Shown here: positions 1 through 4,971 of the stretch, piece by piece
Numbering within the stretch: the first letter of the stretch is position 1
Layout: the number at the start of each line of letters is the position of its first letter
IMG/VR virus record: IMGVR_UViG_2529292853_000007
Source: a virus
Taxonomy: Duplodnaviria; Heunggongvirae; Uroviricota; Caudoviricetes
DNA length: 4,971 bases
Direction: 5' to 3' (one strand)
Notes under the pieces: generated by a model
Told to the model about the DNA's origin: nothing
Database searches by the model: none
What the model saw: only the letters and a program-made list of their open reading frames with translations
Position numbers and translations under genes: made by a program

Positions 1-2496
1 GTAATGCGTACCTGACCACACAGCGCAAGGCGTGGGATGTGCTCAGTGATTTCTGCTCGGCGATGCGCTGTATGCCGGTATGGAACGGGCAGACGCTGAT
101 GTTCGTGCAGGACCGACCATCAGATAAGGTGTGGACCTATAACCGCAGTAATGTGGTGATGCCGGATGATGGCGCGCCGTTCCGCTACAGCTTCAGCGCC
201 CTGAAGGACCGCCATAATGCCGTTGAGGTGAACTGGATTGACCCGAACAACGGCTGGGAGACGGCGACAGAGCTTGTTGAAGATACGCAGGCCATTGCCC
301 GTTACGGTCGTAACGTCACGAAGATGGATGCTTTTGGCTGTACCAGCCGGGGGCAGGCACACCGCGCCGGGCTGTGGCTGATTAAAACGGAACTGCTGGA
401 AACGCAGACCGTGGACTTCAGCGTGGGTGCGGAAGGGCTTCGCCATGTACCGGGGGATGTCATTGAAATCTGCGATGATGACTATGCCGGTATCAGCACC
501 GGCGGGCGCGTGCTGGCGGTGAACAGCCAGACCCGGACGCTGACGCTCGACCGTGAAATCACGCTGCCATCCTCCGGTACCACGCTGATAAGCCTGGTTG
601 ACGGAAGTGGAATCCGGTCAGCGTGGAGGTCCAGTCCGTCACCGACGGCGTGAAGGTGAAAGTGAGCCGGGTTCCTGACGGCGTTGCCGATACAGCGTGT
701 GGGGGCTGAAGCTGCCGACGCTGCGCCAGCGCCTGTTCCGCTGTGTGAGTATCCGTGAGAACGACGACGGCACGTATGCCATCACGCCGTGCAGCATGTA
801 CCGAAAAAGAAGCCATCGTGGATAACGGGGCGCACTTTGACGGCGACCGAGCGGCACGGTGAATGGGTCACGCCGCCGCGGTGCAGCACCTGACGCCGAA
901 GTCACCGCAGACAGCGGGGAATACAGGTGCTGGCGCTGGGACACGCCGAAGGTGGTGAAGGGGTGAGCTTCCTGCTTCGCCTGACCGTGGCAGCGGATGA
1001 CGGCAGTGAGCGGCTGGTCAGCACGGCCCGGACGACGGAAACCACATACCGCTTCACGCAACTGGCGCTGGGGAACTACAGGCTGACAGTCCGGGCGGTA
1101 AATGCGTGGGGACAGCAGGGCGATCCGGCATCGGTATCGTTCCGGATTGCCGCACCGGCAGCGCCGTCGCGGATTGAGCTGACGCCGGGCTATTTTCAGA
1201 TAACCGCCACGCCGCATCTTGCGGTTTATGATCCGACGGTACAGTTTGAGTTCTGGTTCTCGGAAAAGCGGATTGCGGATATCAGGCAGGTTGAAACCAC
1301 AGCCCGCTATCTTGGTACGGCGCTGTACTGGATAGCCGCCAGTATCAATATCAAACCGGGCCATGATTATTATTTTTACGTTCGCAGTGTGAACACCGTT
1401 GGCAAATCGGCATTCGTGGAGGCTGTCGGTCAGCCGAGTGATGATGCATCAGGCTATCTGGATTTTTTCAAAGGCGAGATAGGGAAAACCCATCTGGCTC
1501 AGGAGCTGTGGACGCAGATTGATAACGGTCAGCTTGCGCCTGACCTGGCTGAAATCAGGACGTCCATTACGGATGTCAGCAATGAAATCACACAGACCGT
1601 CAATAAGAAACTGGAAGACCAGAGTGCAGCGATCCAGCAGATACAGAAGGTTCAGGTTGATACAAATAATAACCTGAACAGCATGTGGGCTGTGAAGCTG
1701 CAGCAGATGCAGGACGGACGCCTTTATATTGCGGGTATCGGTGCCGGTATTGAGAACACCCCTGACGGCATGCAGAGTCAGGTGCTGCTGGCGGCAGACA
1801 GGATTGCGATGATTAATCCTGCGAATGGCAACACAAAGCCGATGTTTGTTGGTCAGGGCGATCAGATATTCATGAATGAAGTGTTCCTGAAACGCCTGAC
1901 GGCTCCCACCATTACCAGCGGCGGTAATCCTCCGGCATTTTCCCTGACACCGGACGGGAGGCTGACGGCGAAAAATGCCGATATCAGTGGCAGTGTGAAT
2001 GCGAACTCCGGGACGCTCAACAACGTCACGATTAACGAGAACTGTCCGATTAAGGGCAAACTGTCAGCCAACCAGATTGAAGGCGATCTCGTTAAAACAG
2101 TGGGCAAAGCTTTCCCGCGGGACTCCCGTGCACCGGAACGGTGGCCATCAGGGACCATTACCGTCAGGATTTATGACGATCAGCCGTTTGACCGGCAGAT
2201 TGTTATTCCGGCGGTGGCATTCAGCGGTGCTAAACATGAGAGGGAGAATAACTGATATTTATTCGTCATGCCGCCTGATAGTGCGGAAAAACGGTGCTGA
2301 AATTTATAACCGTACCGCGCTGGATAATACGCTGATTTACAGTGGCGTTATTGATATGCCAGCTGGTCGCGGCCACATGACGCTGGAGTTTTCGGTGTCA
2401 GCATGGCTGGTAAATGACTGGTATCCCACAGCAAGTATCAGCGATTTGCTGGTTGTGGTGATGAAGAAAGCCACCGCAGGCATCAGTATCAGCTGA
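1..2496 (+). pseudogene. J: Lambda-like tail tip / central tail fibre host specificity protein J, C-terminal ~830 codons; 5' end lies outside the window; reading frame disrupted at multiple points (or sequence errors)
   Basis: Frame 3 from position 3 reads NAYLTTQRKAWDVLSDFCSAMRCMPVWNGQT... matching recalled lambda J, open to 653. Between 610 and 965 the J-like sequence hops frames (frame 2 at 611-688 NPVSVEVQSVTDGVKVKVSRVPDGVA; frame 1 at 691-786 YSVWGLKLPTLRQRLFRCVSIRENDDGTYAIT; frame 3 at 786-803 AVQHVP; frame 2 at 806-847 KEAIVDNGAHFDGD; frame 1 at 850-867 SGTVNG, and so on). It returns to frame 3 for ORF 927..2255 ([54 protein letters not shown]...). Frame 3 stops at 2253-2255, and the J-like C-terminus (...GVIDMPAGRGHMTLEF...ISIS) continues in frame 1 to the TGA at 2494-2496. 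Confidence 0.85.
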
Positions 2497-2515
2497 ATTT
2501 TATAACCCATATACG

Positions 2516-2540
2516 GGCGCCAGAAATGGCGCCTTTTTTA
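2516..2540 (+). terminator. Putative rho-independent terminator downstream of J: GGCGCC stem, 6-nt loop AGAAAT, GGCGCC, then TTTTTTA
   Basis: Perfect 6-bp GC stem at 2516-2521 and 2528-2533 followed directly by a T-run at 2534-2539, 20 nt after the J stop codon. Confidence 0.6.
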
Positions 2541-2552
2541 TTGCAGAAAAGC

Positions 2553-2566
2553 GAGAGGTAATTATG
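2553..2566 (+). promoter_or_regulatory. Ribosome-binding site (GAGAGG) and ATG start of lom
   Basis: GAGAGG at 2553-2558, 5 nt upstream of the ATG at 2564 that begins MRKVCAAILSAAICLAVSGAPAWA, a typical signal peptide. Confidence 0.6.
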
Positions 2567-3160
2567 CGTAAAGTTTGTGCAGCCATTTTGTCCGCAGCCA
2601 TTTGTCTGGCCGTATCCGGTGCGCCTGCATGGGCGTCTGAACATCAGTCCACGCTGAGCGCGGGGTATCTTCATGCCCGACGAACGTCCCCGGCAGCGAT
2701 GATCTGAACGGGATTAACGTGAAATACCGTTATGAGTTTACGGACACACTGGGGCTGGTGACGTCTTCAGCTATGCAGGAGACAAGAATCGCCAGCTACC
2801 CGTTACAGCGATACCCGCTGGCATGAAGATTCCGTGCGTAACCGCTGGTTCAGCGTGATGGCGGGGCCGTCTGTACGCGTGAATGAATGGTTCAGCGCGT
2901 ATGCGATGGCGGGTGTGGCTTACAGCCGTGTGTCGACTTTCTCCGGGGATTATCTCCGCGTAACTGACAACAAGGGGAAAACGCACGATGTGCTGACCGG
3001 AAGTGATGACGGTCGCCACAGCAACACGTCTCTGGCGTGGGGGGCTGGCGTGCAGTTTAACCCGACCGAATCCGTGGCCATTGATGTCGCTTATGAAGGC
3101 TCCGGCAGTGGTGACTGGCGCACTGACGGTTTCATCGTGGGTGTCGGTTATAAATTCTGA
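2564..3160 (+). pseudogene. lom: Lom outer membrane protein (Ail/Lom/OmpX/PagC family beta-barrel), phage moron; reading frame interrupted by three apparent single-base deletions (or sequence errors)
   Basis: Frame 2 from the ATG at 2564 gives MRKVCAAILSAAICLAVSGAPAWASEHQSTLSAGYLHA, then a premature stop at 2705-2707. Lom-like sequence continues in frame 1 (2683-2766, NVPGSDDLNGINVKYRYEFTDTLGLVTS), frame 3 (2769-2798, SYAGDKNRQL) and frame 2 again (2798-3160, TRYSDTRWHEDSVRNRWFSVMAGPSVRVNEWFSAYAMAGVAYSRVSTFSGDYLRVTDNKGKTHDVLTGSDDGRHSNTSLAWGAGVQFNPTESVAIDVAYEGSGSGDWRTDGFIVGVGYKF, stop TGA 3158-3160). Matches recalled lambda Lom nearly residue for residue. Confidence 0.85.
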
Positions 3161-3186
3161 TTAGCCAGGTAACACAGTGTTATGAC

Positions 3187-3213
3187 AGCCCGCCGGTTCT
3201 GGCGGGCTTTTTT
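3187..3213 (+). terminator. Putative rho-independent terminator downstream of lom: AGCCCGCC stem, loop GGTTCT, GGCGGGCT, then T-run
   Basis: 8-bp stem at 3187-3194 pairing with 3201-3208, followed by TTTTT at 3209-3213; sits 27 nt after the lom stop and 12 nt before the stf ATG. Confidence 0.65.
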
Positions 3214-3224
3214 GTGGGGTGAAT

Positions 3225-4971
3225 ATGGCAGTAAAGATTTCAGGTGTACTGAAAGACGGTGCAGGTAAACCGGTACAGAACTGTACAATCCAGCTGAAAG
3301 CAAAACGTAACAGCACCACGGTGGTGGTGAACACGGTGGCCTCAGAAAATCCGGATGAAGCCGGGCGTTACAGCATGGACGTTGAGTACGGTCAGTACAG
3401 CGTTATTCTGTTGGTGGAAGGCTTCCCGCCATCGCATGCCGGGACCATCACCGTGTATGAAGACTCACAACCGGGTACGCTGAATGATTTTCTCGGTGCC
3501 ATGACGGAGGATGATGTCCGTCCGGAGGCACTGCGCCGTTTTGAACTGATGGTGGAAGAGGTGGCGCGTAACGCGTCCGCAGTGGCACAGAACACGGCAG
3601 CCGCGAAGAAGTCAGCCAGCGATGCCGGCACATCAGCCCGTGAGGCGGCAACCCATGCGACTGATGCTGCAGGCTCAGCACGCGCAGCCAGCACGTCAGC
3701 CGGACAGGCCGCGTCGTCGGCTCAGTCAGCGTCTTCCAGCGCAGGAACGGCATCAACAAAGGCCACTGAAGCATCAAAAAGTGCTGCCGCTGCAGAGTCC
3801 TCAAAAAGCGCGGCAGCTACCAGTGCCGGTGCGGCGAAAACGTCAGAAACGAATGCGGCAGCGTCACAACAATCAGCAGCCACTTCTGCATCCGCCGCGA
3901 CCACGAAGGCGTCAGAAGCTGCCACCTCAGCCCGGGATGCGGCGGCCTCAAAAGAGGCAGCGAAATCATCAGAAACGAACGCATCATCAAGCGCCAGTAG
4001 TGCCGCTTCCTCGGCAACGGCGGCAGGCAATTCCGCGAAGGCGGCAAAGACGTCTGAGACAAACGCCAGGTCTTCTGAAACGGCAGCGGGACAGAGCGCC
4101 TCAGCTGCGGCAGGCTCAAAAACAGCGGCTGCGTCGTCTGCCAGTGCCGCGTCAACAAGTGCCGGGCAGGCCTCAGCCAGTGCCACCGCCGCCGGAAAAT
4201 CGGCAGAAAGCGCCGCATCGTCCGCTTCAACAGCCACAACGAAGGCTGGCGAAGCCACTGAACAGGCCAGCGCAGCAGCGAGGTCTGCTTCCGCAGCGAA
4301 GACATCCGAGACGAACGCGAAAGCGTCGGAAACCAGCGCAGAATCCTCAAAAACGGCTGCCGCATCGTCCGCCAGTTCTGCGGCGTCATCGGCATCATCT
4401 GCGTCTGCTTCAAAAGATGAGGCGACCAGACAGGCGTCAGCAGCGAAGGGCAGCGCCACGACGGCATCCACGAAGGCGACAGAGGCAGCTGGCAGTGCGA
4501 CGGCGGCAGCACAGAGCAAAAGTACGGCGGAATCCGCGGCAACGCGCGCCGAGACAGCGGCAAAACGGGCAGAGGATATTGCATCCGCCGTGGCGCTTGA
4601 GGATGCAAGTACGACGAAAAAGGGGATAGTACAGCTCAGCAGTGCGACCAACAGTACGTCTGAAACGCTGGCGGCAACGCCAAAGGCAGTAAAATCAGCC
4701 AATGACAATGCGAATAGCAGGGTGCCATCTAACCGAAAAGTTAACGGTAAAGCACTGACTGCGGATATCACTTTAACCGCCGCGCATGTGGCTGCTTTTG
4801 CCAGAAGGGCAACGGATACGTATGCCGATGCGGATGGTGGCGTTCCCTGGAATGCCGAATCAGGCGCTTACAATGTCACCCGCTCTGGCGACAGCTATAT
4901 TCTGGTTAACTTCTATACCGGAGTCGGAAGTTGCCGGACCCTGCAGATGAAGGCGCATTACAGAAATGGTG
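3225..4971 (+). CDS. stf: Side tail fibre protein Stf, N-terminal 582 codons; 3' end lies beyond the window
   Basis: ATG at 3225 in frame 3; I translated codon by codon to 4971 and found no stop. The product begins MAVKISGVLKDGAGKPVQNCTIQLKAKRNSTTVVVNTVASENPDEAGRYSMDVEYGQYSVILLVEGFPPSHAGTITVYEDSQPGTLNDFLGAMTEDD..., matching the recalled lambda Stf N-terminus, then a long Ala/Ser/Thr-rich region, then GIVQLSSATNSTSETLAATPKAVK. It is absent from the supplied ORF track, presumably because it has no in-window stop. Weak Shine-Dalgarno-like GGGGTGA at 3216-3222. Confidence 0.9.
   Translation, partial: MAVKISGVLKDGAGKPVQNCTIQLKAKRNSTTVVVNTVASENPDEAGRYSMDVEYGQYSVILLVEGFPPSHAGTITVYEDSQPGTLNDFLGAMTEDDVRPEALRRFELMVEEVARNASAVAQNTAAAKKSASDAGTSAREAATHATDAAGSARAASTSAGQAASSAQSASSSAGTASTKATEASKSAAAAESSKSAAATSAGAAKTSETNAAASQQSAATSASAATTKASEAATSARDAAASKEAAKSSETNASSSASSAASSATAAGNSAKAAKTSETNARSSETAAGQSASAAAGSKTAAASSASAASTSAGQASASATAAGKSAESAASSASTATTKAGEATEQASAAARSASAAKTSETNAKASETSAESSKTAAASSASSAASSASSASASKDEATRQASAAKGSATTASTKATEAAGSATAAAQSKSTAESAATRAETAAKRAEDIASAVALEDASTTKKGIVQLSSATNSTSETLAATPKAVKSANDNANSRVPSNRKVNGKALTADITLTAAHVAAFARRATDTYADADGGVPWNAESGAYNVTRSGDSYILVNFYTGVGSCRTLQMKAHYRNG
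3594..4560 (+). repeat. Ala/Ser/Thr-rich low-complexity repeat region within stf (fibre shaft), with a recurring K(T/S)SETNA motif
   Basis: About 320 codons dominated by GCN/TCN/ACN codons. The unit AAGACNTCNGAGACNAACGC (KTSETNA) begins at 3837, 3963, 4047 and 4299; the spacings of 126, 84 and 252 bp are all multiples of 42 bp (14 codons). Confidence 0.55.

Follow-up and report, generated by a model that had tools for sequence, protein, structure and literature searches.

Clustered single-base indels in the J and lom genes of an Escherichia coli prophage contig, probably a consensus artefact of collapsed prophage copies

The J-lom-stf module

The window (the whole stretch of DNA that was analysed, 4,971 bp long) is the entire contig AQAC01000076.1 of assembly GCA_000356785.2, as established by exact protein look-up. 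The proteins annotated on this contig belong to the draft genome of the ETEC isolate Escherichia coli P0302293.4. Of a lambda-type tail tip (host specificity) gene J the window contains the two-thirds at the 3' end. On the same strand follow lom, which encodes an outer-membrane beta-barrel of the Ail/Lom type, and stf, a side tail fibre gene represented by its 5' part (Table 1).

At the nucleotide level, the J sequence shares 96-97% identity with genes annotated as gpJ in phages and in E. coli prophages. The precomputed Pfam assignments on the J fragments are Ig_J, Ig_J_second, Phage_Tail_Tip and Ig_GpJ_C, and the gene order is the same as in the loci L001-L003 and L166-L175. By sequence and domain similarity and by synteny the gene is therefore a gpJ. 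It does not form one continuous reading frame: it is truncated by the contig start, and the deposited sequence is further broken by 11 deletion events and one insertion, judged here to be artefactual. The module resembles the lambda J-lom-stf tail module in gene order, in a nucleotide identity of 96-97%, in Pfam domains and in the terminator-like hairpins situated after J and lom. There is no biological difference between the two; just the deposited reading frames are broken here. Over positions 3161-4711, which lie for the most part in stf, there are no indels relative to locus L002, and a search for tandem repeats in stf found none.

J is a multi-copy sequence in genomes of this kind. Complete E. 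coli genomes have a median of 2-3 places matching J and up to 14-15, and complete ETEC genomes have 4-7 such places. P0302293.4 probably also carries several prophage copies. The window is a short contig over a multi-copy prophage module, as would be expected for a collapsed-repeat error.

Table 1. Positions of genes, hairpins and indels in the 4,971-bp window. Absent and extra bases are relative to intact genes; codon positions are those of the intact reading frame.
Feature	Position	Strand	Basis or detail
Lambda-type tail tip / host specificity gene J, 3' two-thirds	1..2496	+	96-97% nucleotide identity to gpJ; Pfam hits
Clustered deletions in J (11 events, 12 bases), as compared with all intact J genes	604..962	+	Base-level alignment
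1 base absent	610..611	+	GGC/GGT/GGG codon position 3; C/G/T among alleles
1 base absent	688..689	+	GGA/GAA; G/A column 38:38 among alleles
1 base absent	784..785	+	ACC/ACT codon position 3; C/T 52:24
1 base absent	802..803	+	CCG/CCC codon position 3; L003 vs L076 difference
1 base absent	848..849	+	CAG/CTG codon position 2; rare A/T variant of L076, L167; L003 vs L076 difference
1 base absent	866..867	+	GGT/GGC codon position 3; L003 vs L076 difference
1 base absent	877..878	+	CCA/CCC codon position 3; L003 vs L076 difference
1 base absent	893..894	+	ACC/ACT codon position 3; L003 vs L076 difference
1 base absent	923..924	+	TAT/TAC codon position 3; T/C 52:24
2 bases absent (after about 932)	930..937	+	From GCGCGC/GCCCGC/GCGCGA; window reads GCGC-T
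1 base absent	962..963	+	GGC/GGG/GGT codon position 3; L003 vs L076 difference
Extra T in J	2253	+	Makes TGA stop at 2253-2255, ending ORF 927..2255
Terminator-like hairpin then T run, 3' of J	2515..2534	+	
lom (Ail/Lom outer-membrane beta-barrel gene)	2564..3160	+	Lom annotated in references; Pfam Ail_Lom on fragments; alignment
1 base absent in lom	2677..2678	+	Alleles TCG or CGG; window CG
1 base absent in lom	2765..2766	+	TCA/TCG/TCT codon position 3
1 base absent in lom	2797..2798	+	CTG/CTT codon position 3; G/T 42:25
Terminator-like hairpin then T run, 3' of lom	3187..3208	+	
stf (side tail fibre gene), 5' part	3225..4971	+	Open to contig end

Indels in J and lom

The J deletions were located by alignment with three intact J references, ten full-length J-lom loci and 80 partial J loci. 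In all intact J genes, the counterpart of an 801-base query is 813 bases long. The missing bases are distributed over ten single-base deletions and one two-base deletion, with 9-96 bp between neighbouring events. When the segments between the deletions are translated one by one, the J-like frame runs in the order 3,2,1,3,2,1,3,2,1,(3),1,3, and each segment is 100% identical in peptide sequence to intact J, the 9-nt segment 924-932 being too short to be called alone. In the stretch 933-962 the J-like peptide is encoded in frame 1, and frame 3 is open there as well. The net loss of 12 bases restores frame 3 at position 963, within ORF 927..2255.

These results bear out the original prediction, made from the letters of the window, that J-like sequence can be followed between 600 and 970 only by repeated switching of frame. 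The order of frames that had been traced is the one given above; the lambda-like peptide that had been noticed outside frame 3 at 937-961 lies in the frame 1 segment; the net shift is a multiple of three, with frame 3 resumed, as had been proposed; and the amino-acid sequence, described then as almost unchanged, is identical in every segment. It had also been suggested that indels and substitutions be counted in a nucleotide alignment with intact J genes. In region 571-1000 this count gives 11 deletion events and three substitutions relative to the best reference. In region 780-975 the best matches in complete genomes have an identity of 95.1% over 206 record bases, as would be expected from ten gaps without any substitution.

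Similar events, overlooked in the original prediction, occur beyond 600-970. After the stop created by the extra T at position 2253, J proceeds in frame 1 to its end at 2496. The alleles at positions 2250-2253 are of two types, 'AAT AAC GAT' (L117) and 'CAT ACT GAT' (L002 and L119), and the window reads 'AAT AAC T GAT'. This event is opposite in direction to the others, being a gain rather than a loss. The lom gene is broken into three ORFs by three single-base deletions.

The indels are confined to this one contig. Upon searching 5,426 complete E. coli genomes with region 780-975 using BLAST, none of the 15,135 J places found (in 4,537 genomes) was seen to share any of the deletions, and an exact 60-mer spanning four deletions had no match in genome, viral and metagenome collections. 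The ORFs created by the indels (442, 108, 71 and 72 amino acids) are recorded on AQAC01000076.1 only, and a 349-amino-acid ORF also maps to this contig only. An intergenic ORF of 57 amino acids occurs in ten other loci, none of them from sister isolates. The record field 'samples_with_this_contig = 3' was considered as a sign of sister isolates and was set aside, because the same field reads 2 for the complete chromosome CP025753.1; what the field gives is most probably the number of copies of a single record.

If the deposited sequence were taken as it stands, about 15 recent frameshift mutations would have struck J and lom of a single prophage, inactivating the tail fibre of a decaying element. 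Frame-disrupted prophage genes are common and broken J genes are present in other assemblies, for instance that of L172 with its nonsense mutation, in agreement with such a history. However, 11 indel events accompanied by three substitutions in 430 bp, at 100% peptide identity, are unlike neutral decay. The identity of the peptides between the deletions to intact J means that there is no sign of decay: neither accompanying substitutions nor relaxed constraint were found. Nor do the lesions recur in sequences obtained independently from this strain or from related ones, the allele being absent from all other assemblies, genomes and metagenomes that were searched. There is, moreover, no known mutational basis for the coincidence of the lost bases with sites of inter-allele SNPs, described below. 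Genuine mutation is thus very unlikely, and the 'very recent damage' that had been offered as an alternative to a technical artefact finds no support.

Position of the indels relative to allelic variation and base runs

A panel of 76 distinct J alleles was compiled from 80 IMG/VR loci and the three references. For all 14 deletion events (11 in J and three in lom) a placement exists on a column at which natural alleles vary. Each of the ten single-base J deletions can be put on a polymorphic column, as compared with 34% of random deletions, an expectation that takes in the ambiguity of placement within runs (binomial P = 2e-5, 76 alleles). With a minor-allele count of at least 3 required, the number is 9 of 10 (P = 8e-6). 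The three lom deletions likewise all fall on polymorphic columns (67 alleles, P = 0.027). In the reference frame, third codon positions can host 11 of the 14 events. The events at 688 and 2677, which are not at third positions, occur at sites that vary between the references, and that at 848 is the exception.

The correspondence is closest for the alleles L003 and L076, which have exactly six differences in the region 785-997 of the window. A base has been dropped at each of the six, and neither allele's base is kept. One of the differences is the A/T substitution at a codon position 2, which is present in only one of the 76 alleles. The probability of a six-of-six match is about 2e-6 to 2e-5, as given by a hypergeometric estimate corrected for the post hoc choice of the pair. 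The J single-base events outside this set are situated on common polymorphisms (C/T/G at 610, G/A at 688, C/T at 784 and T/C at 923).

The more complex sites have a similar relationship to the alleles. In the GC repeat, the window sequence GCGC-T is the longest common subsequence of GCCCGC-T and GCGCGA-T, as worked by hand on the listed allele forms, which gives the loss of two bases. At 2677 in lom, the window sequence CG is the longest common subsequence of TCG and CGG. At 2253 the window has the AAC allele type plus an extra T that matches the ACT of the other type. The alternative bases at the 12 J sites are not found together in any of the 76 alleles, L076 covering six of the sites and L027/L028 five, so that the second copy would be either an unsampled mosaic or one of more than two copies that were collapsed. 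That the lost bases coincide with differences between J alleles indicates an error of the consensus in a prophage region whose several copies were collapsed.

Indels at the same sites might in principle be real, had one base been deleted at each heteroduplex mismatch while diverged co-resident prophages recombined. The pattern would then be the footprint of an aberrant processing of mismatches, and tail genes would be inactivated in patches. This is given hardly any credence here.

The losses had been described in the original prediction as coming often from short homopolymers, and here it fails. Of the 11 J events, six have taken out a singleton (C in GGCAA, A in CCAGA, T in GGTGT, A in CCAGC, T in TATCA and C in GGCGT). 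Another four have each shortened a two-base run by one base, and in the last a GC unit has gone from (GC)3. The reference stretch has four runs of at least 4 bases (G5, A5, G4 and G4), and these are all intact. The examples that had been put forward show the same: at GGAATCC a lone C is gone; at CCGAAAAAG the A5 is kept and one G of GG is gone; and at TGGGTCA the loss of a lone T has created GGG rather than shortened a run.

Illumina sequencing is a platform with very few indel errors. According to the project papers, the isolates were sequenced as 100-bp reads on an Illumina HiSeq 2000 and assembled with the Celera Assembler, and a companion paper reports an average coverage of >200x for 208 isolates. 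The sister isolate P0302293_3 (AQAB00000000, ST155, run SRR446963) is an ETEC from Bangladesh belonging to this Illumina/Celera project. P0302293.4 was presumably processed like its sister isolates, as suggested by the adjacent accession and the shared project. The density of deletions climbs toward 962 and then stops, which is reminiscent of the tail of a low-quality Sanger read, but this idea was dropped in view of the Illumina/Celera source.

Read-level errors of the homopolymer-biased type made by 454, Ion Torrent or Nanopore instruments, carried into the consensus, would account for indels that are nearly all of a single base and lack accompanying substitutions, and four of the events do touch two-base runs. 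The indels are nevertheless neither within longer runs nor biased toward them, and the platform, as reported by the project papers and presumed for isolate.4, was neither flow-based nor nanopore. With Illumina chemistry, and all the more at the coverage reported for the 208-isolate set, read-level indels are implausible as the source of the J losses. Random errors are not expected to fall on allele-variable columns (P about 2e-5), nor at all six of the L003/L076 differences. A true case of homopolymer-type deletion in the L173 draft (A4 to A3 and A2 to A1) looks unlike the window. Such an origin is therefore extremely improbable. The split J genes of L172 and L173 had been considered as further cases of the artefact seen in the window and were rejected, that of L172 being caused by a nonsense substitution and that of L173 by the homopolymer deletions.

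Probable origin of the indels and comparison with known systems

The frame hops are best explained as an artefact of consensus calling in a short-read draft assembly, in which several prophage copies were collapsed, and not as a property of the bacterial DNA (probability about 0.86). A 5-kb contig confined to J-lom-stf has the look of a collapsed repeat in a short-read draft. The contig is indeed short and confined to the repeat, the module is present in several copies in complete E. coli and ETEC genomes, and the errors coincide with differences between alleles. The indels are almost certainly no biological feature. The suggestion of a technical artefact in the original prediction thus stands, given the indels without substitutions, the unchanged peptides and the restriction to one contig; its homopolymer-biased mechanism does not, in view of the base context, the Illumina source and the coincidence with allele sites.

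Isolate P0302293.4 probably has at least two lambdoid prophages with nearly identical J-lom-stf segments, whose reads would have been piled by the assembler into the one 4,971-bp contig. The copies would be nearly identical over 5 kb and would differ in the 360-bp patch of J, at the end of J and over 120 bp of lom. Each difference between the copies was seemingly written in the alignment not as a mismatch but as two half-gapped columns. A column-by-column vote would then have dropped both of them, leaving in the patches a consensus that is a common subsequence of the copies. Assuming that this is so, an isolated SNP would result in the loss of one base, TCG aligned with CGG also in the loss of one base, and the GC repeat in the loss of two. 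At 2253 both half-columns may for once have been kept, giving a gain of one base; this gain implies that the vote was not uniform. The software step that dropped the bases was presumably this vote. No description of the Celera Assembler turning variant sites of Illumina data into indels was found in the literature.

A different fault of the pipeline, in which ambiguity codes or N were written at the mixed sites and stripped by a later step, would likewise cause single-base losses exactly at the sites of inter-copy SNPs. It predicts, however, a loss of two bases at 2677 in lom (TCG against CGG), where the window has lost one, and a loss of two bases at 2250-2253 (AAC against ACT), where the window has gained one. 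At the GC repeat it predicts GCCGT, whereas the window has GCGCT. Stripping of ambiguous bases is for these reasons considered unlikely. The model of staggered gaps fits the GC repeat, 2253 and 2677 alike.

Through this artefact, false gene fragments have entered public databases. Two fragments of Lom have protein accessions (ENE31528.1 and ENE31529.1), and the split J ORFs, together with antisense ORFs, are called as genes on AQAC01000076.1. Such artefacts raise the counts of pseudogenes and of pan-genome genes for the prophage regions of draft genomes. Their signature is a cluster of single-base indels, free of substitutions and situated on columns that vary among paralogues, in a short contig bounded by repeats. 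It offers genome scans a simple test by which errors of the consensus, real frameshifts and homopolymer errors can be told apart.

The decay of real prophages proceeds by substitutions, larger deletions, IS insertions and nonsense mutations, which are common to related isolates. The window resembles a cryptic lambdoid prophage in this process in that its J and lom genes are broken up and, were the sequence real, would have no function. It differs in having indels only, which lie on allele-variable columns and are unique to one contig.

In the lambda tail genes G/GT, a programmed -1 ribosomal frameshift occurs as one event at a slippery heptamer, and the DNA is intact. The likeness to the window is limited to a change of frame within a tail-gene cluster. 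Here there are 11 deletions in J at the level of the DNA, no slippery motif, and homologues that are intact in one frame.

The errors in homopolymer length made by 454, Ion Torrent and Nanopore instruments share with the window the single-base indels, the apparent frameshifts and the absence of accompanying substitutions. They strike runs of identical bases, as in the A4 of L173, whereas here, on an Illumina platform, the long runs are intact and singletons make up most of the lost bases.

The nearest published parallel is the 'short-range mosaicism' of Levy et al. 2007 (PMC1964779), in which the Celera Assembler consensus of mixed haplotypes became a short-range mosaic sequence present in no read. 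In both cases a consensus derived from more than one near-identical sequence is a string found in none of them, and the errors are exactly at the variant sites. The mosaic described by Levy et al. concerned the choice of bases where allelic differences cluster in a Sanger assembly of a diploid, whereas in the present Illumina assembly of a bacterium nearly every variant site has become a single-base indel.

The 3' part of J

The J gene, which encodes the tail tip, is truncated because an extra T creates a TGA codon. The surrounding sequence (window 2247-2256) looks like a merger of two allele forms, AAT AAC GAT and CAT ACT GAT. Downstream of this T, the C-terminal domain of J stays open in frame 1 up to 2496. 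The part of J lying between 963 and 2240 has no indels; in a set of 5,426 complete genomes of E. coli its top identity is just 97.5%, as opposed to 99.3% for window 1-600 in the same genomes. This part of J may be a truly rare mosaic allele, or it may be a consensus that blends bases of several copies.

lom, stf and the intergenic gaps

The single lom gene (window 2564-3160) is replaced by three ORFs, situated at 2564-2707, 2719-2826 and 2834-3160, because three single-base deletions interrupt it. Two of the three fragments have been deposited as the GenBank proteins ENE31528.1 and ENE31529.1. The number of terminator-like hairpins in the window is not above that in shuffled sequence; both of those found occupy intergenic gaps. 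The Ala/Ser-rich part of the side tail fibre gene stf carries two additional open frames, and no tandem repeats were found by TRF in this part (window 3622-4771).

Small features of J, lom, stf and the gaps between them (window coordinates)
Feature	Position	Strand	Remarks
Extra T in J	2253 (context 2247-2256)	+	makes TGA, truncating J
Hairpin, GC stem with T tail	2515-2534	+	terminator-like; gap 3' of J
Single-base deletion in lom	after 2677	+	column variable among natural alleles
Single-base deletion in lom	after 2765	+	column variable among natural alleles
Single-base deletion in lom	after 2797	+	column variable among natural alleles
Hairpin, GC stem with T tail	3187-3208	+	terminator-like; gap 3' of lom
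Second + frame ORF in stf	3622-4629	+	335 aa
Antisense ORF in stf	3722-4771	antisense	349 aa; has a gene call in the deposited contig

Genes of other prophages

In the lambdoid prophage at the comparison locus L166 (LOOP01000011.1), a gene with RVT_1 (reverse transcriptase) and TIR domains (4102-5706) lies just past the tail-fibre end. This apparent defence gene has no relation to the window's indels. In the reference prophage L003 (CP027355.1), the gene for minor tail protein L (1423-2120) carries a RefSeq frameshift annotation.

The J gene is also split at two comparison loci. One of these, L172, is one of two J-lom-stf copies in the complete genome CP025753.1. A nonsense substitution, C to T, turns a CAG codon of its J into TAG, and this J may be a genuine pseudogene. 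That prophage also has a split tape-measure gene. The J of L173 (AIGE01000010.1), from a draft assembly, is split by two single-base deletions (AAAA to AAA and AA to A), called relative to its near-identical relative L168 and corresponding to window 384 and 391. These deletions are of the homopolymer type, unlike the indel pattern of the window.
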